From NCBI GenBank assembly GCA_043716655.1, contig JAYSYF010000092.1, forward strand, positions 1 to 48,089: a stretch of DNA of 48,089 nucleotides, given 5' to 3'. Source of the stretch: Bdellovibrionales bacterium (GTDB lineage: Bacteria > Bdellovibrionota > Bdellovibrionia > Bdellovibrionales > JAMPXM01). Of the stretch, positions 7,743 through 39,713 are shown in pieces (the stretch's first letter is position 1; each line of letters opens with the position of its first letter). The notes beneath the pieces are model-generated. The model saw only the letters and a program-made list of their open reading frames with translations. It was not told where the DNA came from and did no database searches. The position numbers and the translations under genes are program-made.

Positions 7743-7748
7743 GTAACT

Positions 7749-7788: not shown

Positions 7789-7792
7789 GGTA

Positions 7793-8356: not shown

Positions 8357-8427
8357 TTTGCTGCCTTTCTTCCTTGAGAGGCTCGTACATCGTCGAGAAA
8401 AAATCTAAATCGAAACTGCTTGTTTCG

Positions 8428-8751
8428 TTATTCGTTCATTTTCAATTGTTCGCTTACAAGTCGCTCGGCAATTGCATCCGAATCAACTTTGTAAGATCCG
8501 CTATCGATCATCGCCTGAAGACGCGCCACTTTTGCTTGGTCGATATCACCGCTTGGTGTCGACATTTCTTTTACGCGTTTCATTTCTTGTGCGCGCGAAG
8601 AGACATTCACATTCGTCGATGAACCAACGGTTGCGCCAAGCGCTTCAGCCGCTGACGATTTGCCGTTACGTGCGGACTTCGCCACGTCAGCGGTCGTCGT
8701 TGGCGCTGCATTTCCGGCCACATTCTTTGGGCCTGAGTTCGAGACTTTCAT
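8428..8751 (-). CDS. flgM: anti-sigma-28 factor FlgM
   Basis: 107 aa, with a disordered N-half and the C-terminal motif IDQAKVARLQAMIDSGSYKVDSDAIAERL typical of FlgM. Confidence 0.9.
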   Translation of the reverse strand: MKVSNSGPKNVAGNAAPTTTADVAKSARNGKSSAAEALGATVGSSTNVNVSSRAQEMKRVKEMSTPSGDIDQAKVARLQAMIDSGSYKVDSDAIAERLVSEQLKMNE

Positions 8752-8835
8752 GAAACCTCCACCACTGAAAAAACCAGGGCTCTATAAAAGTGTATCACAA
8801 TGAGACAAGAATCCACGAGCCCATAAGACCAGAAA

Positions 8836-9831
8836 TCACATATCTACGCTAGGGAGCGCTTTATCCGCTTCCTGGACCAAAGTCTGCCGTAACAGGATCC
8901 CTCGTGCGCCTCGTCCGAGGTGGCCAACGGTTTGGCCCGCCTTCACAACGTCACCTTTGTTAACCTGAAACGTCACTCCATCAAACGCCAGCTCGACTTT
9001 ACGAGCGGGCTCCGACTTCTCCGCAACGTACGCGGCTTTCGCGTCTACGGTTGAAGACTCCTTAACCTCGATTGCAGTTTCGAGGCCTATGACAACCTTG
9101 CCGTCAGCGGATTCGAGCTTCGTGATTCGCCCGCTCCACGGGCTACGAACCGACTCGGGTCCATCTGCCGCGCGGGCCGTGCTTTTTTCGAGAGAAACCA
9201 AAACGGTTTCGATCGTGGAGGCGCCACCAGCGCCCTCAGTTTTAACTCCTGGAAGTTTGCGAACCTTCAATACATCGCGATCCGTCAGAGCCATCGGTGT
9301 TCGCACTTTACCCTTGGCTGCTTTCATCGCAAGCCGCCGCATTTTCATCATCTCGGCTTTGCCGATTAATTCGTCGTGAATCATATCTGCGAGTCCGATG
9401 CCCCCGCGCTCGCCCCACGTGTCGACATATTGATCGTCGAGCTGGTCGCGATAGATTCCTTCACCCATCGATTGTTTTTCAAGATCCGATCGATGCACCG
9501 TCGAACGCATGGCCTTCATCATCTGACCCAAGAAATATTTTTCGTACATCTTGGCGGCGTCGAGCACGCGCTTGTCGCGAACCATCGGCGGCGGCGCAGT
9601 CGCAGTTTCGGGCACGGCCGTTGGATTCGCAGCGGAAGATTCTGTCTGCGGCACTTTTGTTAAATCCAATTTCTGCAGCTGCTGTTCTGCCGGCTTCTCT
9701 ATCATCTGCAAACCGGTTTTCATCATCTGAAGTTGCGACGCGACTGCGGGCAACGAAGTCGCAAGAAGTGCGACGAAAAAAAACGGGCCCCAAGAAAAAA
9801 ACGGGTAGGTGGATCGGAGCATTACGCGCAT
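8836..9831 (-). CDS. flgJ: rod-binding (FlgJ N-domain) protein with a LytM/barrel-sandwich-like C-terminal domain lacking metal-ligand histidines
   Basis: Rod-binding motif DAAKMYEKYFLGQMMKAM...WGERGGIGLADMIHDEL. A Sec-type signal peptide begins at MRVMLRSTYPFFSWGPFFFVALLATSLPAVA-SQ, so the start is probably ATG 9831 or 9822. The ORF stays open up to GTG 10170, but that stretch uses AGA/AGG/CTA/ATA codons that are absent from the rest of the gene. Confidence 0.75.
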   Translation of the reverse strand: MRVMLRSTYPFFSWGPFFFVALLATSLPAVASQLQMMKTGLQMIEKPAEQQLQKLDLTKVPQTESSAANPTAVPETATAPPPMVRDKRVLDAAKMYEKYFLGQMMKAMRSTVHRSDLEKQSMGEGIYRDQLDDQYVDTWGERGGIGLADMIHDELIGKAEMMKMRRLAMKAAKGKVRTPMALTDRDVLKVRKLPGVKTEGAGGASTIETVLVSLEKSTARAADGPESVRSPWSGRITKLESADGKVVIGLETAIEVKESSTVDAKAAYVAEKSEPARKVELAFDGVTFQVNKGDVVKAGQTVGHLGRGARGILLRQTLVQEADKALPSVDM

Positions 9832-9838
9832 CCTGCGC
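9826..9838 (-). promoter_or_regulatory. GGA-apex hairpin at the flgJ-like start (candidate CsrA site)
   Basis: Minus strand reads GCGCA-GGA-TGCGC. The 11-mer CGCAGGATGCG is identical to the core of the flgK leader hairpin. Its AGGA lies 8 nt upstream of ATG 9822. Its internal ATG is the alternative start 9831. Confidence 0.3.
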
Positions 9839-10059
9839 TGTTTACAGATAAAGCCTAGTGTAGTCGCCAATCCTAGCGTGCTGACTCTTTGCTCCTGTTT
9901 CCTGCTCGAAACGTCTCTGCTCTTAAACCATCCTTGGTTGAACAAACTCCAACCCACCGTACCCCAGGGAAGCGACATCCATGTTGCCTCCCATTCTATA
10001 ATTTTATGTTCACATGTCTCAGATCGAAACACTTTCGCGGTCGAGGCCAGTTCCGTTTT

Positions 10060-10075
10060 GGCATTTCTGGTCCCA
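10060..10075 (-). promoter_or_regulatory. candidate sigma54 promoter inside the flgI / flgJ-like spacer
   Basis: Minus strand reads TGGGAC-CAGAA-ATGCC. The GG-N10-GC spacing is correct and 9 of 11 consensus positions of TGGCAC-N5-TTGCW match. Confidence 0.3.
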
Positions 10076-10210
10076 CTAGAGCCAAGCGCGCTCGACTTAC
10101 AACCGCTGTCGCCAGACTTTTTCTCAGCGGCGAAATCCATTTCGCTCACTGAACCACAAACTACCGACACTGGTCCTGCTCTCCCCGGTTAGAAACCGAA
10201 AACTAAACCG

Positions 10211-11239
10211 CTAAAGAATTTCGAGTTCGCCCTGTAAAGCGCCTGCTGCCTTAATGTTCTGTAAAACCGTAATCAAATCGCGAGGGCTTACACCAATCTG
10301 ATTGAGCGAGCGAACGAGATCGCCCACGCTTGTTCCCGAATCGAAAAGTGCGACGCGGTCGCCGTCTTTGCCTTTCGATTTTCCGCCATCGACTTTTACA
10401 GTCAGGTCGCCGTGACTGATCGCCACGCGCGAAATTCGAACGGTGTCGCCGATGACGACGGTTCCCGTCTTTTCGTTCACGATGACTTTTGCGCGTGTGT
10501 CAGGTGTCACGTCGAGAGATTCAATACTCGCAAGCAGTTCGACGGCGCGGCCTTCATAGGAGAAAGGTACGATAATATCCACTGTGCCCGCGTCTTTGGC
10601 GGAAGCATATTTGCCCGACAAATCCATATTAATTCGCTTCGAAAGACGAGCGGCCGTCGTGAAGTCGGGATTATGGAGCGTCAGACGAAACATTTTTCGC
10701 GAAGTGAAATCTTCAGCAACGTCACGTTCGATGATGGCACCGTTGGGAATACGACCGACTGTCGAGTGGCTATCGGCACCCGTTCCGACGAGAAGCGAAC
10801 CCTGCGCAACAGCGTAAATATTTTGATCGGCCGCACGCAGAGGCGACTGAATTAAAGTTCCACCAGCGAGCGACGAAGCATCGCCAATCGAATTCACTGT
10901 GATATCCAATTTGTTACCAGCGCGAGCGAATGGAGGTAACGACGCCGTAATAACAACCGCCGCGACGTTTTTCGACGCGATGTCTTTATCTTCTACCTTC
11001 ATCCCAAGCTTATCGAGCATGCGCACAATCGACTTGTTTGTGAATTCTGCCTTCGAGTCGCCTGTGCCCTTAAGGCCGACAACCACGCCGTAACCGATCA
11101 ACTGGTTGTCGCGAACCCCACGTACGTTCGCGATGTCTTTCACGCGTGCCGCTTCGGCGAAGCCTGCACTGAAAACCGCAATGGCCGCGATCAATGCGAT
11201 CAACAGTGGAGTATATATGTTTCTTGCCTGATTTTTCAC
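10211..11239 (-). CDS. flgI: flagellar P-ring protein FlgI
   Basis: Signal peptide followed by RVKDIANVRGVRDNQLIGYGVVVGLKGTGD, a canonical FlgI N-terminus. C-terminus ...LQNIKAAGALQGELEIL. Confidence 0.95.
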   Translation of the reverse strand: MKNQARNIYTPLLIALIAAIAVFSAGFAEAARVKDIANVRGVRDNQLIGYGVVVGLKGTGDSKAEFTNKSIVRMLDKLGMKVEDKDIASKNVAAVVITASLPPFARAGNKLDITVNSIGDASSLAGGTLIQSPLRAADQNIYAVAQGSLLVGTGADSHSTVGRIPNGAIIERDVAEDFTSRKMFRLTLHNPDFTTAARLSKRINMDLSGKYASAKDAGTVDIIVPFSYEGRAVELLASIESLDVTPDTRAKVIVNEKTGTVVIGDTVRISRVAISHGDLTVKVDGGKSKGKDGDRVALFDSGTSVGDLVRSLNQIGVSPRDLITVLQNIKAAGALQGELEIL

Positions 11240-12018
11240 AGCGAAGCTCCTTTACGCGAACTCACAATGTCGAACTGCGAATCCAGAAGTTTCGACGATT
11301 CAATTCCCGCGTCATCAAAATCTTCCGGACGGACGACACCTGTGACGATGACTTTATATTCACGCTTACCAATCATGAATGGCTGCACACCCTTCACGCG
11401 GTAACTTCCATCCTTCAGCTGTTCAACAATTCGAGTAGGAACCGTTTGAATGGTGCCGATCGGATCTTTAGGATCGAATTTTTCTGCGGCGGCTTTGTCA
11501 GCTCCGCCCGCCTTCGCAGCAGCGCCGGCCTCGGCAGCATCTGCGTCGGGCTTAGCTGCAGCTTCGGCGGGTGCACCTGCCCTTGCGGCTTGTGTCGGCG
11601 TCGAAGCGGGACCACGAAGTGGTGCGTCCAATCGCTCGAGCAATTTTGAAATTACTTTTACTTTGCTGCTCAATTGCGAACGAGGGCTGCCCTCAACACG
11701 CACGTTGAGCAAATCGCCCATGACGCGAGTTTGGTTCTGAGCAAAGAGATAAGCACCTTGCCCCTCCATCACCCAAAGCGAACCCGCTTGCGCGTTCACT
11801 TCCGCTTCGTCTTCGAACTTGTTTTTGTTCATGCGACGATATTTGCGATCCGATTGAAAACGAAGATTTTCCTGGTCCGAGTATTTTGTGACCTTCGGAC
11901 GATCGTCTTTGACTAGCCGAGTGAGGCTTCCGCAACCGGTCATGGCGGCAAATACCGCTAAGCAAAACGCCATGAGAGAAAGTTTCCAAAATGAGTATCG
12001 ATTATTGGATTTCAACAA
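11236..12018 (-). CDS. flgH: flagellar L-ring lipoprotein FlgH
   Basis: Lipobox AAMTGC and the GSLWVMEGQGAYLFAQNQTRVMGDLLNVRV motif. An Ala-rich low-complexity insert is present. 4-nt overlap with the flgI start. Confidence 0.9.
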   Translation of the reverse strand: MLKSNNRYSFWKLSLMAFCLAVFAAMTGCGSLTRLVKDDRPKVTKYSDQENLRFQSDRKYRRMNKNKFEDEAEVNAQAGSLWVMEGQGAYLFAQNQTRVMGDLLNVRVEGSPRSQLSSKVKVISKLLERLDAPLRGPASTPTQAARAGAPAEAAAKPDADAAEAGAAAKAGGADKAAAEKFDPKDPIGTIQTVPTRIVEQLKDGSYRVKGVQPFMIGKREYKVIVTGVVRPEDFDDAGIESSKLLDSQFDIVSSRKGASL

Positions 12019-13042
12019 GACCCTTCTCCTTCAAAATACCAGAAACGAGCTTCTGAGATTTTCCTACTTTAACCCGAACCGTTTCCCCAAGTGCGGCTGC
12101 ACCTTGAGCAATTCCATCTGTCGTTACGCTCCAAGTTTCGCCGCCGCTTTGAACGCGAACCGGATCGCCGAAACGTACTTGTTGTTCACGACGAAGAGTC
12201 GATTTCCAAATGGGCTCGCCCATAGGAAGACCGCGTGCTGCGATACTGTCTTCGAAATCTTTTGCCGTTGCAGGGGCATCAAGAATGTATGAGATGTTTC
12301 TACGTTCTGTTTTAAAGTCAGATGGCTGCATTTTTTCGCCAGCCTGAATTGCTCGCTGAGCCACTGGTACTTGCGCGAAAAATTCGACCTGCCCAGAAAC
12401 AAGAAGTGTCTTCTTTGCGGCATTTCCCTCACCGACCAATTCGAACTCAACCGGAACTGAAAAACTTCCGCGAGGACGGTCAGATCTAAAGGCGAGACGC
12501 CACGAGACGACTTTCAGTGCTTCGGTTACGGGCCAATCGATTTGTTTGATTACGACATCGCATCCACCACATCGTGAAGAAAATTCGTCTTTGATCTGCT
12601 TCAACGCAGCTTCGCGAACAAAGTCGTTCTTACGAGAAACGTGAGTCCGCCGTGGAATCTTCCATTCGACAGTGAAACCAGCAGCCTCAAGTCGCCGCGA
12701 AGCCTCGCTGACAATCGCCTCGAGACCGGCCTCAGTAAACGTTCGCTCTTCACCGACGTCGGGACGATCGGTAAGTACGATCGACTTCAAGTGTCGCATC
12801 ACAGCTTCGCGATCCGCGGCGGTGATCGTTGCCGGGTCGACGATTTCAGCTAGCGTCAGTTCATCCTTCTGATCTTTCTGGTCGCCGTTTGATCCGGCCC
12901 CAAGATTGACGGCAGGACGAATAACGATCGTCACCGAGTGGTCTTCAACCGCCACTTGACCTGCTGGCCAAGCGTTCGGTCCCGACAACATCGCGGCGAG
13001 GACGGTTACAACTAGGAAGAACGCCTGAAGAACAATGGTCAT
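12002..13042 (-). CDS. flgA: flagellar P-ring assembly chaperone FlgA (long form)
   Basis: Signal peptide and a C-terminal SAF-like segment ...FGDPVRVQSGGETWSVTTDGIAQGAAALGETVRVKVGKSQKLVSGIL. Position between flgG and flgH. Confidence 0.8.
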   Translation of the reverse strand: MTIVLQAFFLVVTVLAAMLSGPNAWPAGQVAVEDHSVTIVIRPAVNLGAGSNGDQKDQKDELTLAEIVDPATITAADREAVMRHLKSIVLTDRPDVGEERTFTEAGLEAIVSEASRRLEAAGFTVEWKIPRRTHVSRKNDFVREAALKQIKDEFSSRCGGCDVVIKQIDWPVTEALKVVSWRLAFRSDRPRGSFSVPVEFELVGEGNAAKKTLLVSGQVEFFAQVPVAQRAIQAGEKMQPSDFKTERRNISYILDAPATAKDFEDSIAARGLPMGEPIWKSTLRREQQVRFGDPVRVQSGGETWSVTTDGIAQGAAALGETVRVKVGKSQKLVSGILKEKGLVEIQ

Positions 13043-13061
13043 AGATCCTTTAACGGTTCAT

Positions 13062-13847
13062 CTACCGAAGCTGGTTCACGGACTGCAGCATCTGATCTGA
13101 TGCCTGAATGACTTTCGAATTAGTTTCGTAAGAACGTTGCGCCGTAATCATGTTGACCATCTCGTCGACGATATTGACGTTCGATGCTTCGACTTGCCCT
13201 TGAGCAAGTTCGCCGAGACCGTTTTGTCCCGGAGCACCTTGCACCGGAAGTCCGCTCGCGCCCGACGGCATGAACACGTTTTTTCCCATCGAACGTAGGC
13301 CCGCTGGATTTACGAAGTTCACGATTTGAATTTGGCCAATCGACTGCGGAGCAATCGAACCCGATGCCATAATAGTCACTTGTCCGTTTGCCGCGATGTC
13401 GACGCCGACGGCGTTCTGCGGAATCACGATTTCTGGCTGAAGCGCGTTGCCATTTTTGTCGACGAGCTTTCCAGTCGGATCTTTTTTGAATTGGCCGTCA
13501 CGTGTGTAACCGATCTGACCATCACCAGTCTGCACTGGGAAAAATCCTGGTCCTTCGATTTGAATATCGAGCGGATTCTTTGTGATCTTCGCCGCACCGA
13601 ACTCAAAATCTTTTTGAATCGCAGCCGTGCGAACGCCGAGACCGGTCTGAACTCCGGTCGGAGAAATGGAATTCAATCCTGAAACGGCGCCCGGTTCTTT
13701 CAACGTTTGATACATGAGATCTTCAAACTCGGCGCGCGATTTCTTAAAGCCCGTCGTCGAAACGTTCGCAAGGTTGTTGGCAATCACGTCCATGTTTGTC
13801 TGTTGCGCCTGCATTCCAGTCGCGGCTGTCGTCAGCGATTTAATCAT
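13062..13847 (-). CDS. flgG: flagellar distal rod protein FlgG
   Basis: MIKSLTTAATGMQAQQTNMDVIANNLANVSTTGFKKSRAEFEDLMYQ ... VDEMVNMITAQRSYETNSKVIQ; 261 aa. Confidence 0.95.
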   Translation of the reverse strand: MIKSLTTAATGMQAQQTNMDVIANNLANVSTTGFKKSRAEFEDLMYQTLKEPGAVSGLNSISPTGVQTGLGVRTAAIQKDFEFGAAKITKNPLDIQIEGPGFFPVQTGDGQIGYTRDGQFKKDPTGKLVDKNGNALQPEIVIPQNAVGVDIAANGQVTIMASGSIAPQSIGQIQIVNFVNPAGLRSMGKNVFMPSGASGLPVQGAPGQNGLGELAQGQVEASNVNIVDEMVNMITAQRSYETNSKVIQASDQMLQSVNQLR

Positions 13848-13900
13848 CGGTCATCTTTCTGGTGAGCACTCTGGCTCAACCTACTGGTTAGCCGTTACGC

Positions 13901-14695
13901 CTAACCCTGATTGAGCTTTGGAACTTCGTTGACTACTTTGCCAGCCATCTGGTCGTAGGCCTGAATTGCTTTTTGAGTACTTTCGAATGTTCGCGTCGCA
14001 GAGATCATATCCGTCATTTCACGAACGATGTTCACGTTGCTGCCTTCGAGGAATCCCTGACTCAACTTCGCTTCAACGGCTTGACCCATTTTCGCATCAA
14101 TATTATCTTTGAGCGTGAACAGGTTTGCGCCTTGCTTAAGAAGAGCGTCCTGATTTTCGAACTTCACGAGCGACATTTTGCCGATGCTCTCGTTGTTTTC
14201 AAAAACTTCGCCTGTGTCAGAAATAGAAACGTTCGTGCCTGTGAAACGGAACTCACCGCCGCCTTGTTTTTGAACCGGAAAACCCTGTTTCGTTACAAGT
14301 CGGCCATCACCGTCGACAGCGAAATTTCCCGCGCGCGTAAATCGAACGCCTTCCGGAGTCGCCACTTCGAAAAATCCTGAGCCTTCTATTGCGACGTCTA
14401 GTTTGTTTCCAGTTGGACGCAATGTTCCCTGAGAAAAATCTGAAAATGTTCCGTCGAGGTCGACAAAAGATTTATCGCCGCCATTATGCGTGTAGAAAGA
14501 TTCGATCGACGCAGGGATGCGTGGAACTTCTACCGCTCCGGGTTCTTTATTGTAAGAAGTCAGATACTCACGAAAGAGTTGGCCATCACGCTTAAACCCC
14601 GGCGTATTTACGTTTGCGAGATTGTTCGCAACCGTATCCAATTTCGCCTGTTGAGCCATCGCACCGCTCACTGCGGTAAAGATGCCTTTGCTCAT
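13901..14695 (-). CDS. flgF: flagellar proximal rod protein FlgF
   Basis: MSKGIFTAVSGAMAQQAKLDTVANNLANVNTPGFKRD... Start at ATG 14695 with AGGAGG 4 nt upstream. The ORF extension to 14818 (TTG) is leader sequence. Confidence 0.9.
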   Translation of the reverse strand: MSKGIFTAVSGAMAQQAKLDTVANNLANVNTPGFKRDGQLFREYLTSYNKEPGAVEVPRIPASIESFYTHNGGDKSFVDLDGTFSDFSQGTLRPTGNKLDVAIEGSGFFEVATPEGVRFTRAGNFAVDGDGRLVTKQGFPVQKQGGGEFRFTGTNVSISDTGEVFENNESIGKMSLVKFENQDALLKQGANLFTLKDNIDAKMGQAVEAKLSQGFLEGSNVNIVREMTDMISATRTFESTQKAIQAYDQMAGKVVNEVPKLNQG

Positions 14696-14720
14696 GCGTC
14701 CTCCTGACGTTCGTCGAGTC

Positions 14721-14741
14721 GAGCCGCCATCCTGGCGGCTC
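14721..14741 (-). promoter_or_regulatory. GGA-apex hairpin in the flgF leader (candidate CsrA site)
   Basis: Minus strand reads GAGCCGCCA-GGA-TGGCGGCTC, a perfect 9-bp stem. It lies between the sigma54 promoter and the SD (CAGGAGGACGC-ATG), which carries further GGA motifs. Confidence 0.4.
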
Positions 14742-14780
14742 GCGAGTACCGTTCCCCAACACTGTTCCATCTTCAAGCAC

Positions 14781-14796
14781 AGCAACAGTGGTGCCA
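14781..14796 (-). promoter_or_regulatory. sigma54 (RpoN) promoter for the flgF-G-A-H-I operon
   Basis: Minus strand reads TGGCAC-CACTG-TTGCT, an exact match to the -24/-12 consensus TGGCAC-N5-TTGCW. The -12 element lies about 86 nt upstream of the flgF ATG. Confidence 0.6.
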
Positions 14797-14980
14797 CCTC
14801 GACGAAATCACGACTCAAGTTTTAAAACGAATAAACGCAGACAACGACGTGATCTAAACGATTTAGATTTTCGAAACTCGACGAAAGCACCGCCAAGAAT
14901 TCGACCAGAGTCCGTCAAAAGATGATCTCGACATCAAAACCTTGTGGCCGCACACTGACCAGACGAAGGCGAGGTCAACG

Positions 14981-21949: not shown

Positions 21950-23320
21950 TTAGTTCTTCTTAGAAGCCGGCATCGCTGCCGTCTTTTTATCGTCCGACGC
22001 TTTCTTCAAAGCTTCTTTCGACGCGGATGGCATCGCGGCTGGTGCAGGCGGTTTCGCCGTAGCTGCTGCCACCGGCGGAACTGCTGGCATAGCTGCAGGT
22101 TTTGCTGCCATTGCACTTGGTGCAACCGTTGCTTTACCAGCAGCAGTAGCGCCGACTGGCATCTCTTCGTCTTCACCATCATCAAGCTTCGCATTCAGAT
22201 CTACATCTGGTGCGATAACGCCGATTTTGTGAAGCTCGAGAATTTTCTTACGAAGCTGTTCGAGCAATGGCTTGTTGTCTTTCAGGTATTGTTTCGCCTG
22301 ATCGCGGCCTTGACCCATACGTTCACCGTTGTACGAATACCAAGCGCCCGACTTCTCGATGATGTTGTGTTGTGCGCCGAGATCGACGACATCACCTTCA
22401 AGCGAGAAACCTTCGCCGTACATCAGATCGAATTCTGCTTTTGCGAACGGCGGAGCCATTTTGTTTTTCACAACTTTGACGGCCGTGCGGTTACCGACAA
22501 CCTCTTCACCGTTTTTGATCGCGCCGATGCGGCGGATATCGAGACGAACCGAAGAATAAAACTTCAACGCGTTTCCACCGGTCGTTGTTTCTGGGCTTCC
22601 GAACATCACACCGATCTTCATACGGATCTGGTTGATGAAGATAACCATCGTTTGGCTGCGAGCGATCGCCGACGTCAGTTTGCGAAGTGCCTGCGACATC
22701 AAACGCGCTTGCAGTCCCATGTGACTATCGCCCATGTCGCCTTCGATTTCCGCGCGAGGTACCAACGCCGCGACCGAGTCGATGACGAGTACGTCAATGG
22801 CGCCGGATCGAACGAGTGTTTCTGTAATTTCGAGAGCCTGCTCACCGGTGTCCGGTTGAGAAATCAAAAGATCTTCCGTGCGAACTCCGAGCTTTCGAGC
22901 ATAACCGATGTCGAGCGCGTGCTCGGCGTCGATGAATGCCACGACTCCGCCCAATTTTTGCGCCTCGGCGATCACCGAAAGACACAACGTTGTTTTACCC
23001 GATGATTCTGGTCCATAAATCTCGACAATCCGGCCCTTTGGCAGTCCGCCAATTCCGAGCGCGATATCTAATGAGAGGGAACCGGTCGACACGACTTGAA
23101 CGTCACGAACGAGTGGTTCACCCGCGCCCAAACGCATGATCGAACCCTTGCCGAATTGTTTTTCGATCGCACCAACGGCGAGTTCGAGAGCTTTGCCTTT
23201 TTCAGCGAGAGCTTTTACGTCTTGTGCGGCTTTTTTCTCGTCGAGTGCCGACATCTTCGCGCCAGTCGCCTTCGAATCAGCCTTCAAATCGTTTTTCGTC
23301 TCAGTCATTTGTGTTGCCAT
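21950..23320 (-). CDS. recA: recombinase RecA with N- and C-terminal extensions
   Basis: [14 protein letters not shown]...[13 protein letters not shown]...FIDAEHALD...[25 protein letters not shown]. The protein is 456 aa, against about 350 aa typical. AAGAGGAA lies upstream of ATG 23320. Confidence 0.97.
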
Positions 23321-29169: not shown

Positions 29170-30012
29170 ATGAAGACAAAAAGTAAACACAGCGCTGGTT
29201 TTTCTCTCGTAGAAGTCATGATTGCCGTCGGAATCTTGGGCGTCGTCTCGGTTGGAATGGCCTCGCTGTTCACCACTCAGCAGCAAGAATTTAAGGCGCT
29301 GGCGCAAAAAGCAGACACCATCGAGCTTCGAAATCGTGTGATGAACAATCTGATGCGACCCGCAGTCTGTGCGTGGCAGCTTGCAGGAAAAGTAATTGAT
29401 CTCTCGACGACAACAACGACGGTGCCTAGTCCGACCGTTATCGATTTTGGCGTGGTCCCATTGTACGAAGGACTGGATGCAACTTCTGGCATCCTCGCGC
29501 AATCTGGAAACACAGTTATGTACACGCACGGTGGAATTGTCGTCGACAAAGTTCTGTTCAAGGACATTCTCTCGACAGGAATTCCGAACGAATACAACGG
29601 CATCATCGAGATTCAATTTCAATCGACGTCGATGATCCGGCCACTGCGCCCAATTCAGATCCAGCAAAAAATTACGACGAACAACGCGACGGCCACCGCA
29701 ACCATCACGACTTGCGGAACCGTTCTCGCCGGCAACAGTTCTTGGGTTCCGATTCCACTTGTCGGTGCTACGCAAGCGGCTACATACATCAGCTATATAT
29801 CTGGCGGCGGCCAACCCAGCGTCATTTGTCAAAACGCAGGTTTTCTTACGTTCGCAGGCGCCTGCCGATTCATAGATGCAGCGGCTCGAATGCACGAGGG
29901 CACGGTCGTGGCTAACACCGTTTCAGGTTACTGGACCCTGAGCTGCCATTACGGCGGCAACTCGTTTTATTTTTCAACCACAACCATGTCGGAAATTCTT
30001 TGTCTAAGATAA
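29170..30012 (+). CDS. prepilin-type N-terminal cleavage/methylation domain protein (type IV pilin / pseudopilin-like, 280 aa)
   Basis: MKTKSKHSAGFSLVEVMIAVGILGVVSVG is a class III signal sequence (G/FSLVE). The C-terminal half is Cys-rich. Confidence 0.75.
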   Translation: MKTKSKHSAGFSLVEVMIAVGILGVVSVGMASLFTTQQQEFKALAQKADTIELRNRVMNNLMRPAVCAWQLAGKVIDLSTTTTTVPSPTVIDFGVVPLYEGLDATSGILAQSGNTVMYTHGGIVVDKVLFKDILSTGIPNEYNGIIEIQFQSTSMIRPLRPIQIQQKITTNNATATATITTCGTVLAGNSSWVPIPLVGATQAATYISYISGGGQPSVICQNAGFLTFAGACRFIDAAARMHEGTVVANTVSGYWTLSCHYGGNSFYFSTTTMSEILCLR

Positions 30013-30016: not shown

Positions 30017-33000
30017 CTAGTGGGCAGCGGCTACTTTCGGAATTTTTCCGAACGATTCGATGCACGAAAATCCGCGCGCAACTCCAGCCTTCACAGTTTC
30101 GACACCCTTCTCGACGACGAAGCGCACTTTGTCGCCCGTCGAGAGATTTACATTCTTTCCGAACTCTTCTGCACGCGCCGTCGCAAGCATCGTCAGTCGG
30201 TCACGTGGGCTCCTAAAACTCGCCGTCATTAACTCGGGTGCGTTCTCTTTAATAACTCCGAGGTATTGGTTGTGCTGCACGACGGCTCGAGCGAAGTCGA
30301 AGTACTGAATCGACATCGGGTGCCCGATTTCTTCGAGCGCCGATAGCAACGAGTAGTAAGACGCCAGTGGCGATCGGTTGGTCGCCGGATATGATTTCGC
30401 CAATAGCTTTCGCAGCAGTGAACTTTTCGCCACCGGCAACTCGAGCTTTTCTAAAATAAGTTTGGCTGCCCAGTCGGTCGAGCCATAGCGGTCCATGATT
30501 CCCGAGATAGCAAAAAGGTCCACCACTCTGTCACGTTCGGCTCTCGTGATTTGAAGCACTTGTCCAAAATCGATTGGTCGAAACGTGAGTTTACCGGACG
30601 GATCCGCGTGAATTTTAAAGTTACCGGGATGTCGGTCGGGATCGAACGTAATCACGTCTTGATCATTGAAAAGATTGTCACCTTCGATTTGCATGATTCG
30701 AAGTGCCGCACGACCTTTCGCTTCGGGCATCAAGTCATGAATCGAAGTGCCGTCGGCGTATTCAGATTTGATCATAGTTGCATCGACCAACTTTTCTTTT
30801 GGAACTTCGAAATCACTCAGTTTCGAGTACACCTCGCGTGTCGCATCGGCCGAGTTTCGCACTTCATTGTCCAACTTCAACTCGCGATGGATCGCTTCGC
30901 GAGACGCACGAATGATTGACCTCAGAACCGAGTACTTTGATCCATGTTGCTTCTTCAAGATGTCTGCCATCCCGTTCAGTCGATCGAACTGTTGATCGAC
31001 AGTGGCCGAAGCTTCCGCTCGAAGCACTTTCAAAACAAACGGATGTCCATCGTCGAGATCCAGCGCTTTCGCCGCATACTTGACCGACGCGGCTCCTAGC
31101 AAATCATCAAGTTTCCCAGGAATCGCTTCACCGTGCATGGCTTTCGAAATATCGGCGTACATTCGAGAACGCTTCGGTTTGTTCGCTTGATCCTGAAGTG
31201 TGCGAAGTGTCGCGTTGTCACTTTCAGGCAAAATATCCGCAGCGACGATGAACTGACCGATCTTCACGCCCGAAGCGCCCATCGCCTCGAGTACTTGTTT
31301 GAGGACGCGACCGTTCGACCCATCGCCGCCTTTCGACGCAAGCATATACGAGAGCACGAGAGTGCGTTGCGCTTTGTTGCCGGTTCCTCCGTCGAAGGAA
31401 CCTAAATAAGCTTCTAGAACTTCGCGCGCAATGGCTCTCGATTTCTCTCCCTCTTTACTCGCGGTTTTTCCGCCGCCAACGAGGTAGTCGACGATTGTTT
31501 TTCCCCACCCGTCTTTGACTGTGCCCTTCGGCATCAAGCCCGTACTCGAGTCGAGAATGTTATCTAAGAAGACGGCTTTTTGATATTCCGGCAACAGACT
31601 ATAAATTCGCTGAACGCGATCAGACCCGATGACGGGAAAGAGATCTTCAACAGTTTTGTTAGCGGGACGTTCGCCGCGGAGCCAGAGAATCATTTGCCAC
31701 TTTTCCTCTTTCGACAATCTCTGCACCGCTTCACTCAACGATGACAGAGTCCGCGTAGTCACATCGGCCTGGCCAACTCCGGTTGGTCCACGATATCGAT
31801 CGAGAAATCTTTCTTCAAACTGGCTCGTCTTCGCTTGATCGGCCACTTTTTCGATCATCGCATTGTATTCGGGACCGCGGCCCGAGAATTCAGCTTCAGA
31901 AAGGCGCGCAACTTCGCGAAGCGCCTTGGCCCGCTCGAGCTGAAGGTCACGGCTTGGCCGCAGTTCATTTGCCGTCTCAGCGAGAAGTTTCATTTCTTTC
32001 GTTCGATCCAGCCGCACCTTCAGCGTTTTCGCACGCAGCTGAGGCTCCCACAGCCGACCTTTTGTTAATCCGGATAGTCGAAACTTTTCGGCAGGATCCG
32101 CTGCGCTTTCAAAAAGTTTTCCGAACATTTGATCTGTCGTGTTCGTTACTCCGCGCCCAACAAATTTTTGCCACAACACCAGCTCGCCGGATCTATCCGT
32201 TGGCATAATTCCGAGCGATGACATCTTCTCGAGAATGCGTTTTTGAAGTTTCTCGGAATATTCTGGACGATACTCCCAGAGTTTTCCGTTCGCCTGCATT
32301 GTGGATTGTAGCGATTCGACGAGCACTCGGTCCAACTTGGTGTTGCCAGTGCCCATCGTATTCCAATAGTAGGGTCGGTTGAGCAGTAAATCGATGTCGT
32401 CTTTTGTTTGCAAAAGTCCCGGACGTTTTTCGATCCACTGATACAAATCCTTGAAAGGCCAGTCGGTCGGCTTAAGACCTTGGCGCTCAACAAATTCGGA
32501 CTGGATGTACGCATCCAATTCTTTTACGCTTTTGAATTTTTCTAGAGATGCCCAAAGTTTTGGATATGGATTTATCGCATCTCGGGTTTTCTGAAACACG
32601 GCTCTTTCTTTATTCGAAACCGGAGCGGGAAATGCGATCGTTCGCTCGAGGCTCATAATTCTAATTTTCGCAGGTTCTCCGCGATTTTCCGCAAGTGAGC
32701 TGATTGTTGACGATTGAAGGCGTCTCATTTCCTCGGCAGTTAAAACTTCCCGAGCGCCCATGAGTTCCGTGTGCGTGCGCCTGAAGAGTTCCGCCGCGCG
32801 CTCACCTCGAGCGCCTGGTTCTGCCGCAGCCGCCACCCACTGTTCAACGTACGGTTCGGTCATCTGAAAAAGTTTTCTGATTTGCGGGCCATGAATGCCT
32901 TGCTCAGTAACCTTTAACGGTTTCATTCGCGGCAGCGCACCGTCCGCAGGCTTGTCTAATAGCGGAGTCCGCGCAATTCCACGCATCAATTCTTCCGCCT

Positions 33001-34798
33001 TCACCATGATCGAATCGAGCGATTCTGTCGTCGACTCGACGGCGGTACGCGCGATCGAACTGTCAGTGCGGCTCTGCGCGAGCAACGCACGCTCGATCGA
33101 CGTCGAGAATCGCATGGTCGGAAATTGCTTTTTCGAGCTTGAAGCGAGTGACTCCATGGAATCGCGAAGCTCAGGGCCAAGTAGCATACTTTGCGGAATT
33201 TTTTCGATTTGCTTCACGATCGCAGTCATTTGTGCGTTTGGAATTCGAGGCATGAACTCTTCGACCAGTGTGTGCAAAAGTTTTTGCCGTGCCAGCGCCT
33301 CTTCACGCATTGGCTGAATAATTCTTGATTGAATGAGTTCCGCGGGAAAACCAGCGTCTTTTGCGATGTAAGCTAGGCTATCGACATGCTCAAAAGCCTT
33401 CAGAACCTTAGCGTTCATTTCCAGTGCGTTTGCCAACGAGCCGGTGCGATCGAATACACCTTTGCCTGCAAACTCTCGCTGAAGTGCGATGACGCGAGGG
33501 ACTCGACCTTCTACTAATTTTAGCACTGGATAATGTTCCGCCAGTAGCGCTCGCACTTTGCCAATCAGCTTATCCTCTTTCGATTGTCGGTATTTTGAGT
33601 GTCCCCATTTTAGACCGGCCGTTGACGACGCAAAAAGTGCTACGATTTGCGCGGCTTTCTCTGCGGGCATTTCTTTTAGAATCTGAATCAATTTAACAGC
33701 GCCGTCGGGAGCTTGACTGAGAAGTTCCCAAGCGGATGCGGCAATTGGCCCGACCGTATTTAAGCTGGCGTGAAAAATAGCGGCAAGCTGTGACGACTCT
33801 GGCGACATGAACAGTGCGAAAATCGCATCGCCAGCTGCGGCCGCCGTCGCGTACATGATGGGTTTGTAAATGTACGAGCGACGAAAGTACGGATTACCCA
33901 TCGCCTGATAAGTCATCATCTTCAGCTGCAGTGCTTTCATTCCGCCAGTGAACTCGGACTTTTTGCTTAAGACGTTCGAGAGATTTTCTGATTGCTGACG
34001 AAGTGTCACATACGACTTCATCGCGCTCATTCGAAGTTCCGAATCCGGATGCGAACGGACGAACGCCTTTAGATTCGCCATTCGCCTTTCCTCATTTGTA
34101 TAATTCATCGTTCTGCCTTCGGCGTGCATCGCCGCAATCCGTTTCATGGCGTCGTAACCACCCCACGGGTTGTAACCAGCTTGGATCAATCGATGTACCG
34201 ATCCGAGGTCAGCTCGCAATTCTTCGATATGTCCATTTCCCAGACTTGACGGCAATTTACTTAGAATTTCTTTTACACGGGCCGGATCTTTCGGAAGTTT
34301 GAACAGCGCGGAGTTCCCGTGTGTCAATTCATGACCCAAGATGAACGCGAGTTCATCTTCATTCCGTACGAGGCCAAGGAGTCCCGCGTTGATTTCGACT
34401 TCTGCGACTCCCGCAACAGTACGAATCGATGCATTGACGACAGGAGACGCATTGACGGTGACTTTGATTTTGGTTGGATCGCCCTCGATACCGAGACGAG
34501 TAAGTATCTCGATCACTTTCGCTTTGAGCTGCTTTCCGTGCCCTGCCATCAGCGCCCGCGCCGTTCGCGTTTGGATAACTTCGATTTCTAATTCAGGAGT
34601 AACCTCAGCGAGCGCTTTGAATTCAGCGGTTGGATTTACATCAGTCGAAGTAACTTCGACCGCAACGGGCGGAAGAAAGGATACTGCTTCTTCGGTCGCC
34701 GGTTTCACATTTGGTTCAACGGCCGGATCCGCAGCATGTGTGTTCGACGCGAACACGAGAGAGAAAATCAAAGTGAGATTCGTGAAGTATTTCATCAT
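30017..34798 (-). CDS. 1593-aa exported multidomain protein: N-terminal M48-like metalloprotease domain and C-terminal ABC1/UbiB-type atypical kinase domain
   Basis: Signal peptide MMKYFTNLTLIFSLVFASNTHA-AD. HELTH at 34319..34333, followed by EELRADLGSVHRLIQAGYNPWGG (M48 pattern). ABC1 motifs are VKIGQF...LRTLQD (about 31250), LLGAASVKYAAKA, VLKVLRAE, DRHPGNF (about 30620) and IDFGQV (30557..30574). Confidence 0.85.
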   Translation of the reverse strand: MMKYFTNLTLIFSLVFASNTHAADPAVEPNVKPATEEAVSFLPPVAVEVTSTDVNPTAEFKALAEVTPELEIEVIQTRTARALMAGHGKQLKAKVIEILTRLGIEGDPTKIKVTVNASPVVNASIRTVAGVAEVEINAGLLGLVRNEDELAFILGHELTHGNSALFKLPKDPARVKEILSKLPSSLGNGHIEELRADLGSVHRLIQAGYNPWGGYDAMKRIAAMHAEGRTMNYTNEERRMANLKAFVRSHPDSELRMSAMKSYVTLRQQSENLSNVLSKKSEFTGGMKALQLKMMTYQAMGNPYFRRSYIYKPIMYATAAAAGDAIFALFMSPESSQLAAIFHASLNTVGPIAASAWELLSQAPDGAVKLIQILKEMPAEKAAQIVALFASSTAGLKWGHSKYRQSKEDKLIGKVRALLAEHYPVLKLVEGRVPRVIALQREFAGKGVFDRTGSLANALEMNAKVLKAFEHVDSLAYIAKDAGFPAELIQSRIIQPMREEALARQKLLHTLVEEFMPRIPNAQMTAIVKQIEKIPQSMLLGPELRDSMESLASSSKKQFPTMRFSTSIERALLAQSRTDSSIARTAVESTTESLDSIMVKAEELMRGIARTPLLDKPADGALPRMKPLKVTEQGIHGPQIRKLFQMTEPYVEQWVAAAAEPGARGERAAELFRRTHTELMGAREVLTAEEMRRLQSSTISSLAENRGEPAKIRIMSLERTIAFPAPVSNKERAVFQKTRDAINPYPKLWASLEKFKSVKELDAYIQSEFVERQGLKPTDWPFKDLYQWIEKRPGLLQTKDDIDLLLNRPYYWNTMGTGNTKLDRVLVESLQSTMQANGKLWEYRPEYSEKLQKRILEKMSSLGIMPTDRSGELVLWQKFVGRGVTNTTDQMFGKLFESAADPAEKFRLSGLTKGRLWEPQLRAKTLKVRLDRTKEMKLLAETANELRPSRDLQLERAKALREVARLSEAEFSGRGPEYNAMIEKVADQAKTSQFEERFLDRYRGPTGVGQADVTTRTLSSLSEAVQRLSKEEKWQMILWLRGERPANKTVEDLFPVIGSDRVQRIYSLLPEYQKAVFLDNILDSSTGLMPKGTVKDGWGKTIVDYLVGGGKTASKEGEKSRAIAREVLEAYLGSFDGGTGNKAQRTLVLSYMLASKGGDGSNGRVLKQVLEAMGASGVKIGQFIVAADILPESDNATLRTLQDQANKPKRSRMYADISKAMHGEAIPGKLDDLLGAASVKYAAKALDLDDGHPFVLKVLRAEASATVDQQFDRLNGMADILKKQHGSKYSVLRSIIRASREAIHRELKLDNEVRNSADATREVYSKLSDFEVPKEKLVDATMIKSEYADGTSIHDLMPEAKGRAALRIMQIEGDNLFNDQDVITFDPDRHPGNFKIHADPSGKLTFRPIDFGQVLQITRAERDRVVDLFAISGIMDRYGSTDWAAKLILEKLELPVAKSSLLRKLLAKSYPATNRSPLASYYSLLSALEEIGHPMSIQYFDFARAVVQHNQYLGVIKENAPELMTASFRSPRDRLTMLATARAEEFGKNVNLSTGDKVRFVVEKGVETVKAGVARGFSCIESFGKIPKVAAAH

Positions 34799-36072
34799 TT
34801 ACAACTCTTCGTAGGGCGGCGAGTTTGAGTCACGGCGATGCATTCGATATCTCGCAAAAGCAAATCGATTGGAGACGGCTCGCCCGACCTCATCGGCGTT
34901 GCGTACGGGGGAGCAAAACTCCGTCCAGCTGTATTCCGAATGAGCGCTTCGCGAACGGCCTGTCCGGCCGCAGCAAGAGATCCTGACTTCGCTTCGACAG
35001 AACTCACCGCTCCAGTTTGTTTCATGTGATCGAGCATTTCGTTAAACACACTTTCGTTGTAACCATGCAAATACGGCGAGCGCGCATCGAACACGATCGA
35101 CGGAGTGCCTGCCAATGTCGGTTCCGCCAAGTTGACTGCGCCGGCAACGACATTCAGATCTGAAGCGGCATACACGACATGCATTCGACCTTGGACATCG
35201 TTGATCGCGATAAGTCGTTTCAAAGGATCCCTTGGTGTGATTCCGAGCTCACTCAATTTCAAAACTTGAAATTTTTTGTCACCGAAGTTTTTTTGAAAGG
35301 CTGTGTAATCGATATTTTCGAAAATATCGGATTGGCTAATGATCAGCGCATCCACCGGCTCTTTCATTAAATTCGCAGCCAGCTCAGCGACTTGATCGGC
35401 GCTGTTATAAATCGAATTGTTCAGCGAGACGATTTTATGACTTTCAGTAAATCCGAGTGCGTCTCTAACCGATTTGCGATCTGCGGGTGGTGCGCCTGGA
35501 TTTGCAAGTTTCAGTCGCGACATCTCGAGCACTGTATTACTTCGCTCAATTCCCGTTTCAGCCCGATCTTCGATGGTGAGTCGAACACGTTCGGTTCCCG
35601 GCGCAGCCGGCTTCATTGTCGGCGACGTCTCTAGAATTTTAGCTTCGGGAAAAACTTGCTTCAAAAGACGTACGACGAATGCCGCTTGAGTCGATTCTCC
35701 GAGTAGCTTCGGATCTAGAGTCGCCGCCTTCAATCTTTCAGCATCATGGTGAACGACGACGAACTCGAGATCCGCGCCGTTTCCAAAAGTATTTTTGAGC
35801 GAAGCGAATTGCGGTGAAGCACGCACGTGACTTAGAAACTGCGGTGACAACTCGTCGGCAATCGATGTTCTGAATCGGTAGATCGGAGCCTGACCCAACT
35901 TTCCAAAATCCGTTGGGCACGGACCGGTCAGCAAGAGCATTTCAGAAGGTGCAAAGTGAGATTTCAATCCCCGCGCACTCGCTGCGAAGAGTTCAACGGG
36001 CCGGAAAAAAGACGCGGTTAAAAACGCGCCGGTCCATACTGTTAAAATGAGAAATCGCGAGCAGAGTTTCAC
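34795..36072 (-). CDS. hypothetical exported/anchored protein; C-terminal half weakly resembles a GT-B (Kdo-transferase-like) glycosyltransferase half
   Basis: GTG start and hydrophobic N-terminus. Its stop overlaps the start of the 1593-aa gene (ATGA). The segment INDVQGRMHVVYAASDLNVVAGAVNLAEPTLAGTPSIVF is only loosely GT30-like. Confidence 0.55.
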   Translation of the reverse strand: MKLCSRFLILTVWTGAFLTASFFRPVELFAASARGLKSHFAPSEMLLLTGPCPTDFGKLGQAPIYRFRTSIADELSPQFLSHVRASPQFASLKNTFGNGADLEFVVVHHDAERLKAATLDPKLLGESTQAAFVVRLLKQVFPEAKILETSPTMKPAAPGTERVRLTIEDRAETGIERSNTVLEMSRLKLANPGAPPADRKSVRDALGFTESHKIVSLNNSIYNSADQVAELAANLMKEPVDALIISQSDIFENIDYTAFQKNFGDKKFQVLKLSELGITPRDPLKRLIAINDVQGRMHVVYAASDLNVVAGAVNLAEPTLAGTPSIVFDARSPYLHGYNESVFNEMLDHMKQTGAVSSVEAKSGSLAAAGQAVREALIRNTAGRSFAPPYATPMRSGEPSPIDLLLRDIECIAVTQTRRPTKSCK

Positions 36073-38072: not shown

Positions 38073-39713
38073 TCACTGACGTACCGTCACCCATTGATCG
38101 ATGGTCGAAGAAGGAAACGTTCTGCCCGCGTAAATGTAACCGCGTTGTGTAGGTGTTTTCACCTTCAACCAAATTTCGTTTGCGGCCGCGATGATTTGAA
38201 CGTCCTCAACTTCAACAACAGTACCCTTCTCGAGTACCTCGAGCGTTTCGGTCTTCACACCATCCGCCTCGCGAGTGAGAAGCAACTTCGAACCGTCGGT
38301 TTTTGAAATCTGAACCTGACCGCCGATAGCTGGCAGAAATTGCGTTACGCCCTTTGGAACGGCGTTAAACGACAGCTTCGTTACAGTCGCGATTTTATCC
38401 GCCGTTTCACGTGTACCACCTGAAATCCAACCTTCGAGTTTGTTCGGCAGTCGAATTCGATACTGGCGTGCACGTGCCTCATCCAATTCAACTTCAATGT
38501 CGAGAACCTGAAAGGCCTGCTGTTTTTTAGTGAAACCAATCGTGCGTCCGCCGGTCTCGGCTTTGATCGCGACAGCAACGTTCGTCGTTACGACATCGCC
38601 AATCGATGCGACCTCGGGAAATGCGTTCTGACAAAGCTCGAGTCTGTTTTCAACCATGGTCCGAGGCATACCCATGACTTGTCGATCGGTCGATTTAATC
38701 TTCAAAGGAGTCGCCATCGCTACTTCATCAGACAAACCGGCCAAGCATGTGAACACGCGGACATCGCGCGCGCACTGAAGCGATTTTCCGTCAGCAGTTA
38801 CGCAGGTCGTACCGTTCTCCATTACAAGAGGACGACTCGCGATGTATTCGTTCAAACGTTCTTTTGCGACCGCGCAAAAGTCGTCGCCCGAACGAACGCA
38901 ATCGAGATCGACCTTCAATTTATGATTCTCGTCGCGAACGAACTCGCTCCAATCGCGACTTTTCAATTTCTTGAAATAGTTTTTGTCGTTCTTCGCCCAA
39001 GCGTGACCTGGATTCGTCCATCGGCAAATAGCCCCCGGTCCGCCGTTGTAGGCAGCGTATGCAGCGCGCGTGACGTTCTCGAGGGTTTGCTCACGCTTCT
39101 GATTCTTCACACGCATGATGCATCTCGCCTTCAGCGCCGATTCCCACTCACTAAAATAGTGTTCGATGCCGAAGCCGACGTTTCCGACGATGTCGAACGA
39201 ACGGTCTTGCTCGCGAGACGCATGGTATCGCTGATTGATCTGCATCATTCCATGACTGATGTTTCGGTCGCCTGTGGACAGCTTGTATCCGCCCTTCGCG
39301 CCGATTCGGTAGTGCGACCAAAATGTTTCTTGGTGAGCAACGGTATGGATCGCGTTTACAAATGCGGCCACTTCGTCGTCTTGTACGTCGGGACGTCGAT
39401 CGCGAATGTATTTCGTCGCAAGGTCGCGCAGCAAAGCGTTGACGTTAGTGACATATTCTTTGCGTTGATCGCCATCGGTCGCCGCCGTTCGATCGTAAAC
39501 GAATTCTGAAAATATATACTTGATGCGCGAGACGCTTCCGTAACGTTTTGCATCGCAGCCGTCCGATCCCTCGCCGAACTCCCAAACACCAGGGTCTTTA
39601 CCTTGGCAGTCGCGGATATATGGAACACCCGACAGAGCTTGCTCGGATGCTATCACTGCGATCGCGCCGAGCGTCGCCAGTAGTAAAGTCAGTAACCCCA
39701 TCTTTTTGGACAT
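38073..39713 (-). CDS. exported lytic transglycosylase-like (SLT) protein with SH3-like C-terminal repeats
   Basis: Signal peptide. SLT-like motifs VAHQETFWSHY, SHGMMQINQRYH and AYAAYNGGPGA. The C-terminal beta-rich segments are SH3b-like. GAGGGGAA lies upstream of the ATG. Confidence 0.75.
   Translation of the reverse strand: MSKKMGLLTLLLATLGAIAVIASEQALSGVPYIRDCQGKDPGVWEFGEGSDGCDAKRYGSVSRIKYIFSEFVYDRTAATDGDQRKEYVTNVNALLRDLATKYIRDRRPDVQDDEVAAFVNAIHTVAHQETFWSHYRIGAKGGYKLSTGDRNISHGMMQINQRYHASREQDRSFDIVGNVGFGIEHYFSEWESALKARCIMRVKNQKREQTLENVTRAAYAAYNGGPGAICRWTNPGHAWAKNDKNYFKKLKSRDWSEFVRDENHKLKVDLDCVRSGDDFCAVAKERLNEYIASRPLVMENGTTCVTADGKSLQCARDVRVFTCLAGLSDEVAMATPLKIKSTDRQVMGMPRTMVENRLELCQNAFPEVASIGDVVTTNVAVAIKAETGGRTIGFTKKQQAFQVLDIEVELDEARARQYRIRLPNKLEGWISGGTRETADKIATVTKLSFNAVPKGVTQFLPAIGGQVQISKTDGSKLLLTREADGVKTETLEVLEKGTVVEVEDVQIIAAANEIWLKVKTPTQRGYIYAGRTFPSSTIDQWVTVRQ

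Follow-up and report, generated by a model that had tools for sequence, protein, structure and literature searches.

A giant, predicted exported protein joining an M48 metalloprotease module to an ABC1/UbiB kinase-like domain in a Bdellovibrionales contig

The stretch of DNA analysed here, positions 1 to 48,089 of contig JAYSYF010000092.1 from a Bdellovibrionales bacterium (assembly GCA_043716655.1) and referred to below as the window, carries at 30017..34798 on the minus strand a complete open reading frame (ORF) of 1593 codons with an ATG start, as given by the ORF list and its translation. This giant gene is one real gene and not an artefact of merging. Its product presents, in fixed order, a Sec signal peptide, a soluble M48-type zinc metalloprotease module, a long helical region, an ABC1/UbiB-type atypical kinase-like domain and a basic, amphipathic tail initiated by cysteine, and it is tentatively interpreted, with a probability that we put at about 0.45, as an exported bifunctional enzyme that acts at membrane surfaces outside the cytoplasm of the producing cell, probably as an effector. 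All of the motifs quoted in an initial sequence-only reading of this DNA were found in the translation, each at the position assigned to it, and both domain calls made there hold, since M48 and ABC1/UbiB scored above the curated Pfam thresholds in a profile scan. The domains themselves are known; the architecture, the family, and the export and cysteine features are, as far as could be checked, undescribed. Indeed, the same reading knew of no published account of an M48-ABC1 architecture, and this was borne out by full-text literature searches, in which no description of giant proteins with an M48-helical-ABC1 layout was found.

The extent of the family was established by an exhaustive HMMER search, in which a profile of residues 760-1593 was run against 1.84 billion cluster representatives (50% identity). 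The search yielded 5334 matches at E<=1e-3 and 1665 at E<=1e-10. At E<=1e-30 at least 229 clusters remain, which does not support the rarity of the protein implied by the first reading. Its near-uniqueness is only apparent in word-index homology searches, which under-report the family (3, 6 and 3 matches in three runs) and retrieved P0002 (46% identical) and P0003 (1917 amino acids), the latter with an N-terminal GHELEH module and a C-terminal kinase-like domain; P0003 as query added a few further members. The 150 best matches of the exhaustive search are mostly 1400-2100 residues long and match at their C-terminal end, the region preceding the kinase core included. A family hidden Markov model of the M48 core detected the N-terminal protease module in 112 of the 153 best sequences, most of those without it being short fragments, and Pfam analysis of 28 sampled full-length members found M48 in 23, ABC1 in 16 and no other domain. 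The family comes from uncultured bacteria and is sporadic, its members being singletons in metagenomes. Cluster look-ups gave names for three of the 28 family clusters queried, and the named members from metagenome-assembled genomes (MAGs) belong to Bdellovibrionota (L003), Elusimicrobiota (P0016 and P0156) and Pseudomonadota (P0075), under generic annotations such as "hypothetical protein", "M48 family metalloprotease" or "AarF/ABC1/UbiB family". Two members, P0007 (3167 residues) and P0075 (2635 residues, NCBI MFH0800699.1), carry approximately 1000-1500 extra residues N-terminal of the M48 module; in P0007, which shows no obvious signal peptide, residues at about 1090-1130 are strongly hydrophobic.

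Export of the protein is indicated in the first place by its N-terminus. The predicted Sec signal peptide (34733..34798, minus strand; residues 1-22, MMKYFTNLTLIFSLVFASNTHA, followed by ADP at an inferred cleavage site) shows, as read from the sequence, the n/h/c layout of such peptides, and comparable N-terminal segments occur across the family, in agreement with the cleavable-looking signal peptide noted in the sequence-only reading. A signal-like hydrophobic segment opens 84 of the 109 full-length members, comparable sequences stand at the N-termini of the homologues L003 and L001 (the latter with an extended start), and some of the members without one have mis-called starts, as shown for P0002. 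In 79 of the 109 full-length members, approximately 70% of the family, no further strongly hydrophobic segment is present.

The second indication is the extreme scarcity of cysteine. The giant protein contains one Cys in 1593 residues, compared with an average of 0.71% over the remaining window ORFs (binomial P=1.5e-4), and this sole residue, C1579, lies 15 residues from the C-terminus. P0002, P0003, P0006 and P0008 also possess one Cys each, at the equivalent position; the Cys content of the family is 0.17%, and a Cys is located within the last 30 residues in 119 of 153 members, vs approximately 5% expected. The tail that starts at C1579 (CIESFGKIPKVAAAH; 30020..30064, minus strand) is amphipathic and basic, following a family consensus C-x3-[L/F]-x2-L and then basic residues, with a raised hydrophobic moment (mean muH 0.44 vs 0.31, P=1e-9) and a positive net charge. 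This lone Cys probably has a single, specific chemical role, for instance in an intermolecular disulfide or acylation, and the rest of the protein probably avoids Cys so as to tolerate an oxidising route. A "cysteine switch", in which the C-terminal Cys would cap the M48 zinc, is not supported as its sole role: 20 of the 28 members whose zinc site is degenerate retain the residue, as do 69 of the 84 with an intact site (odds ratio 1.8, P=0.28).

The C-terminal 1000 or more residues are equally depleted of cysteine in members with and without transmembrane (TM)-like segments (0.069% vs 0.085%), which would be hard to explain if this part were cytoplasmic in one of the two groups. Since most members combine a signal peptide, the absence of TM segments and Cys depletion over their whole length, export of the whole protein is favoured. 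The secreted-effector possibility, which the sequence-only reading had offered as its alternative, fits the family-wide evidence better than a trans-envelope arrangement, neither topology being proven.

The kinase-like domain constitutes the constant enzymatic core of the family. It lies at 30512..31339 on the minus strand (residues 1154-1429, the matched core), where the ABC1 family PF03109 scored 49.7 bits against a cut-off of 22.9 (E 3.4e-13, residues 1247-1429) and the NCBIfam UbiB model TIGR01982 aligned with residues 1154-1429 through its positions 40-318 (E 7e-21). The ordered motifs of the superfamily are all recognisable in the translation. The KxGQ signature of ABC1/UbiB proteins (K1179-I-G-Q1182; 31253..31264, minus strand), within VKIGQF at 1178-1183, precedes the kinase core, in the N-terminal extension, and is followed by LRTLQD at 1198-1203. 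LLGAASVKYAAKA, at 1233-1245, contains an A-rich loop, G1235-A-A-S1238, in place of the Gly-rich loop, and VLKVLRAE (1255-1262) provides K1257 (VLKVLR; 31028..31030, minus strand), which alignment columns identify as the equivalent of the ATP-binding Lys. The alphaC Glu is E1306, the first residue of ELKLDNEVRN (1306-1315). The catalytic loop D1386-P-D1388-R-H-P-G-N1393 (30620..30643, minus strand), with DRHPGNF at 1388-1394, and the DFG-equivalent metal-binding motif D1410-F-G (30563..30571, minus strand), within IDFGQV at 1409-1414, were assigned from the translation and from family conservation.

These residues are retained almost throughout the 153 representatives: Q1182 in 153, K1179 in 136, E1306 in 146, D1388 in 148, H1390 in 146, N1393 in 150 and D1410 in 150. 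The ABC1 active site of the window protein is intact, and nucleotide binding, with kinase or ATPase activity, is predicted. At the K1257 column, Arg is found in 86 representatives and Lys in 54, the window protein having the canonical Lys, and the A-rich loop reads G-S-G-S in most members, not the canonical AAS. The combination of Arg at the Lys column with a GSGS loop suggests that large parts of the family may have an altered nucleotide chemistry or true protein-kinase activity.

The domain belongs to the ABC1/UbiB superfamily but is not UbiB, as follows from a TIGR01982 score of 74.2 bits against an equivalog cut-off of 487.55; the cut-off of PRK04750 was also missed (51.4 vs 667). UbiB proper is a protein of about 500-550 residues with C-terminal TM helices, and this identity was rejected on both scores, on the length of 1593 residues and on the lack of such helices. 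A family profile matched the COQ8B and COQ8A structures in the PDB weakly (5e-4 to 5e-3) and a single-sequence phmmer search of the kinase region against the PDB gave no match, placing the domain on a distant branch of the superfamily. An AlphaFold2 (AF2) model of residues 760-1593 was dropped as evidence, with a predicted local distance difference test (pLDDT) score of 52 and a predicted TM-score (pTM) of 0.27; a Foldseek search with it returned nothing significant, kinase folds and alpha-solenoids dominating the list at E>=0.06.

At the other end of the protein, the M48-type module (33992..34567, minus strand; residues ~78-269) was recognised by Pfam, by the family profile and by Foldseek. 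Peptidase_M48 (PF01435) scored 36.3 bits against a cut-off of 20.3 (E 6.5e-9, residues 89-160). The zinc-binding and catalytic HExxH motif, H156-E157-L-T-H160 (34319..34333, minus strand), lies in AFILGHELTHG at residues 151-161, and the segment EELRADLGSVHRLIQAGYNPWGG at residues 192-214 holds E193-x3-D197 (EELRAD; 34208..34222, minus strand), in which alignment to the PDB entry 3C37 predicts the Glu as third zinc ligand next to a conserved Asp, as well as GYNP at 208-211. H156, E157, H160, E193 and D197 were invariant in alignments of 6 and of 28 sequences. A profile of the N-terminal part of six family members matched 3C37, a soluble M48 peptidase of Geobacter, with E 1.1e-10, over both the HExxH segment and the E-x3-D...GYNP segment (E-N-Q-A-D ... 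GYNP in 3C37), and a 28-member profile matched 3C37 at 7e-14 and BepA at 9e-6. Foldseek with an AF2 model of residues 24-420 also gave 3C37 as the best hit (E 2.4e-5, probability 1.0), followed by BepA (6AIT), with TM-scores that are low (TMt 0.40) because the confident part of the model, pLDDT 70-83 for approximately residues 83-253, is the core only.

E193 follows HExxH at a distance of 33 residues, with no hydrophobic stretch in the interval, and a hydropathy scan detected no hydrophobic segment from the signal peptide to residue 312. The module is therefore of the soluble BepA/LoiP/3C37 type, and a membrane-embedded M48 protease of the HtpX, Oma1 or Ste24 type, with TM helices flanking or interrupting the catalytic motifs, was rejected. 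From its sequence, the M48 active site of the window protein is intact and of this soluble type. The zinc site (HExxH plus the downstream Glu) is also intact in 84 of the 112 M48 modules of the family, whereas in the remaining 28 HExxH and/or the Glu ligand is gone but the fold signature and the kinase residues persist, suggesting that the protease of roughly one member in four has turned into a pseudo-enzyme. Apparent pseudo-proteases include P0034, P0037, P0044, P0060, P0062, P0109 and P0118.

The M48 and ABC1 domains are separated by a helical stretch of approximately 850 residues, which the sequence-only reading could not assign; scans of Pfam, NCBIfam and PADLOC likewise gave no family match for it. 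The all-helical middle region proper (31340..33604, minus strand; residues ~399-1153) was modelled by AF2 as entirely helical with low confidence, and its PDB sequence matches were designed helical bundles only, explained by composition. Its last ~350 residues form a family-specific conserved "pre-kinase" region: identity to P0002 climbs from ~20-30% over residues 400-750 to 50-66% over residues 800-1150, and in the exhaustive search this part aligned family-wide, the best stretches beginning at profile positions 60-180. Between the protease and the middle region lies an Ala/Gly-rich region (33605..33865, minus strand; residues ~312-398) with candidate helices at 312-333, 338-356 and 382-398. 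The hydrophobic segments reported there at about 315-390 do exist, but they are only weakly hydrophobic, with a maximal 19-residue Kyte-Doolittle (KD) mean of 1.48, an Asp in mid-segment and a crude Hessa-scale sum of +4.5. Given this weak hydropathy and the internal Asp, they cannot simply be counted as TM helices. AF2 gave helices for them at pLDDT below 50, and the length of the region differs between close homologues.

These features suggest how an exported effector of this kind might work. The whole polypeptide would cross the inner membrane unfolded, in a diderm, flagellated, Bdellovibrionota-like bacterium, and the lack of Cys pairs would spare it mis-oxidation. The tail helix, together with the Ala/Gly-rich region in the clade of the window protein, would then hold it at a membrane surface, where the ABC1 module may extract or alter the lipids or quinones of the membrane, or else act as a protein kinase, and the M48 module may cleave envelope proteins or the giant protein itself. 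Given the ATP requirement of the kinase-like domain and the strong conservation of its catalytic residues, the most likely site of action would be an ATP-containing compartment outside the producer cytoplasm, either a target or prey cell or the permeabilised envelope of such a cell. A prey cell fits with the Bdellovibrionota affiliation of the nearest relatives, the nearest genome match to the giant protein being a MAG of this phylum.

Several observations weigh against an exported effector. Members occur in phyla that are not known as predators (Elusimicrobiota and Pseudomonadota), so that a prey-directed role cannot be generalised to all of them. No secretion system, chaperone or immunity gene was found linked to the giant gene that could account for a route out of the periplasm or to ATP. 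The signal-peptide and TM calls rest on crude hydropathy measures, and the AF2 models are of low confidence (mean pLDDT 52-54). In addition, a type I topology that leaves the kinase in the cytoplasm would agree with the hydrophobic region and the TM-like segments of relatives in the clade of the window protein, as well as with the basic stretch KWGHSKYRQSKEDK that follows residue 398, and hence the last candidate helix, in the window protein itself.

These last observations lead to the trans-envelope protein that had been put forward in the sequence-only reading as a sensor or effector. The signal peptide would be cleaved, the M48 module would be periplasmic, one or three helices of residues 312-398 would span the inner membrane, and the helical region and ABC1 domain would be cytoplasmic, with periplasmic proteolysis or substrate binding coupled to a cytoplasmic kinase or ATPase, or the reverse. 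We regard this as possible though less probable, and give it substantial weight for the clade of the window protein in particular. Members of this clade have a hydrophobic region of 100-200 residues after the protease, which in some relatives includes convincing TM-like segments (KD >2) at the same place with K/R-rich C-flanks, strong in P0110, P0089 and P0102 (Hessa sum down to -1.7), and a cytoplasmic site would supply the kinase-like domain with ATP. Nevertheless, the trans-envelope reading depends on a region that is weak in the window protein and varies in length among close homologues, and that is absent from approximately 70% of the family, whose kinase domain, behind a signal peptide and with no TM segment, must be exported. 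The Cys depletion of the supposedly cytoplasmic 1200 residues is as extreme as in the TM-less members, and the flanks of the hydrophobic region show no overall positive-inside bias (2.0 vs 2.2 K+R). The family-wide fit of this reading is therefore poorer.

A resident envelope-maintenance factor, in which a BepA-like quality-control protease and a UbiB-like lipid or quinone module would act on the producer's own envelope from the periplasm or outer membrane, possibly without ATP or with another phosphoryl donor, is considered improbable. Such a role would agree with the nearest solved relatives of the protease, which are periplasmic or soluble M48 enzymes including BepA, with the association of ABC1/UbiB proteins with lipids and quinones and the sharing of lipid droplets by ABC1 and M48 proteins (PMC12223511), with the absence of a linked secretion or immunity gene at the loci examined, and with the housekeeping context of the gene on the chromosome (recA, alaS and flagellar genes). 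However, the sporadic distribution of the family as metagenome singletons is unlike that of a core envelope function. The near-complete invariance of the nucleotide- and metal-binding residues points to an ATP-dependent reaction, and the periplasm is not known to contain ATP.

An assembly or annotation artefact joining separate M48 protease and ABC1 kinase genes, for which nothing speaks except that the protein is unusually long and combines the two modules in a novel way, can be dismissed, since the ORF is continuous and uniform in base composition with the rest of the window, and both modules recur in the same order and with similar spacing (1023-1169 residues from HExxH to KxGQ) in 112 of the 153 best family representatives. 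The ATG of the ORF is the most upstream start after a stop in the ORF list. Homologues from independent assemblies, P0002 (46% identity over 95% of the query) and L003 (42% identity), align with the giant protein end to end, and the module order recurs in more than 100 independent clusters, which rules out the merging of two genes by error that the sequence-only reading had named as a possible refutation.

Three further interpretations were examined and rejected. A polymorphic or interbacterial toxin with a cognate immunity protein is not indicated, no conserved immunity gene or linked secretion marker having been detected. An anti-phage defence function found no backing, since PADLOC matched neither the giant protein nor its neighbours. 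For an origin in mobile elements, searches of plasmids and viral contigs revealed no relatives of the giant protein, and there was no defence-system match.

Immediately upstream of the giant gene, on the same strand, lies an ORF of 425 codons with a hydrophobic N-terminus (34795..36072, minus strand). Its TGA stop and the start codon of the giant gene share bases (ATGA), suggesting that the two are probably co-transcribed. The 425-residue product has no Pfam or PADLOC match. A counterpart was sought beside homologues of the giant gene and was not found, so that it is probably not an obligatory partner. More generally, no gene family recurs beside the giant gene in the window and 26 locus records (L001-L026, two of them from one contig). 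Promoter and terminator scans gave no more sites than in shuffled sequence. On the other side, a gene at 29170-30012 (plus strand), whose 280-residue product is pseudopilin-like and bears a prepilin-type methylation motif at its N-terminus, is convergent with the giant gene, the two stop codons being 4 bp apart with no convincing terminator there. A 546-residue protein encoded at 38073-39713 (minus strand) contains 10 Cys (1.8%), contrasting with the Cys-poor giant protein, and gave sub-threshold Pfam matches to the SLT transglycosylase (21.1 vs 21.3 bits) and SH3_3 (21.8 vs 27) families.

Further away, the window harbours a flagellar cluster at 3948-14818 (minus strand) comprising fliW, csrA, a flagellin-like/FlgL gene, flgK, flgN, a rod-binding FlgJ-like gene, flgI, flgH, flgA, flgG and a flgF-like gene. 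The presence of the L- and P-ring genes flgH and flgI implies an outer membrane, and the host is thus a motile diderm. The recA ORF (21950-23320, minus strand) encodes 456 residues as called, with the Pfam RecA domain starting at residue 43 and approximately 90 residues following RecA_C; a typical RecA is about 100 residues shorter, and the called ORF may have an over-extended start or a real extension.

The different comparisons bear on several questions. There is an annotation gap, in that hundreds of proteins of 1500-2000 residues are named after a single domain or listed as hypothetical. What UbiB/ABC1 proteins do biochemically has long been an open question, with kinase, ATPase and lipid-extractor activities all proposed. 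This family offers a natural case of an ABC1 domain fused to a defined partner enzyme and an export signal with all catalytic residues kept, and yields direct hypotheses on a substrate shared by protease and kinase, on a function outside the cytoplasm and on the role of the single Cys. If the proteins were effectors of predatory or competitive bacteria, they would represent a new enzymatic class among secreted kinases. It is a speculative and rather doubtful extension that they would be the first UbiB/ABC1 enzymes acting outside the producer cell: exported by the Sec route and otherwise free of cysteine, these effectors would use the Cys-initiated tail, possibly acylated or disulfide-linked, to attach to a foreign or extracytoplasmic membrane, and would couple an ATP-driven activity, in lipid or quinone handling or as a protein kinase, to an M48 protease. 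The fusion would, if so, be genetic evidence of an ABC1-M48 functional pair, as hinted at by plastoglobule and mitochondrial co-residence.

Compared with known systems, the giant protein resembles a BepA/3C37-type protease fused to a COQ8/UbiB-type domain. It shares with UbiB, COQ8 (ADCK3/4) and plant ABC1K proteins the KxGQ motif, the A-rich loop (GAAS), the Lys/Glu pair, D-x-H-P-G-N and DFG. Known ABC1 members have approximately 400-700 residues and are found on lipid droplets or at membranes, on the face turned to the cytoplasm, matrix or stroma, whereas the ABC1 domain described here follows an added family-specific pre-kinase region of ~350 residues and stands at the end of a 1593-residue protein that is Cys-free but for C1579 and has a signal peptide and, at its other end, a protease; most members of the family, the window protein excepted, also differ in the Arg for Lys and GSGS for the A-rich loop. 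With the Geobacter protein Q74D82 (3C37) and E. coli BepA/YfgC and LoiP, it shares HExxH, the Glu of E-x3-D, GYNP and a signal peptide, and, like M48 enzymes of the 3C37/BepA type, it has no TM helices between the zinc ligands. However, BepA (487 residues) has a tetratricopeptide repeat domain after the protease, where the giant protein has approximately 1300 residues including the kinase-like domain, and the loss of zinc ligands in about a quarter of the family is unlike soluble M48 enzymes.

Secreted effector kinases and large multi-domain toxins of bacteria include LegK, YpkA and NleH/OspG on the one hand, and MARTX and the large clostridial toxins on the other. The giant protein resembles them as a large, Cys-poor, multi-enzyme polypeptide with a kinase fold that would need target-cell ATP, and with a possible anchor for target membranes in the form of a hydrophobic or amphipathic element. 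No sequence relationship to them was found, and they use type III, type IV or type I secretion signals or receptor-binding and translocation domains, whereas the giant protein has a Sec signal peptide; no ABC1-family effector turned up among the effector-kinase papers that literature searches retrieved. A parallel in terms of enzyme pairing is found on cyanobacterial and plastid lipid droplets, on which ABC1 kinases and an M48 protease (sll1280/PGM48) co-reside, so that both enzyme families act at one lipid-rich surface (PMC12223511). Plastoglobule and cyanoglobule ABC1K and PGM48 are separate cytoplasmic or stromal proteins on lipid droplets, whereas the window protein unites both modules in one exported polypeptide. 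As a possible "Rosetta stone", the M48-ABC1 fusion could point to cooperation between the two families.

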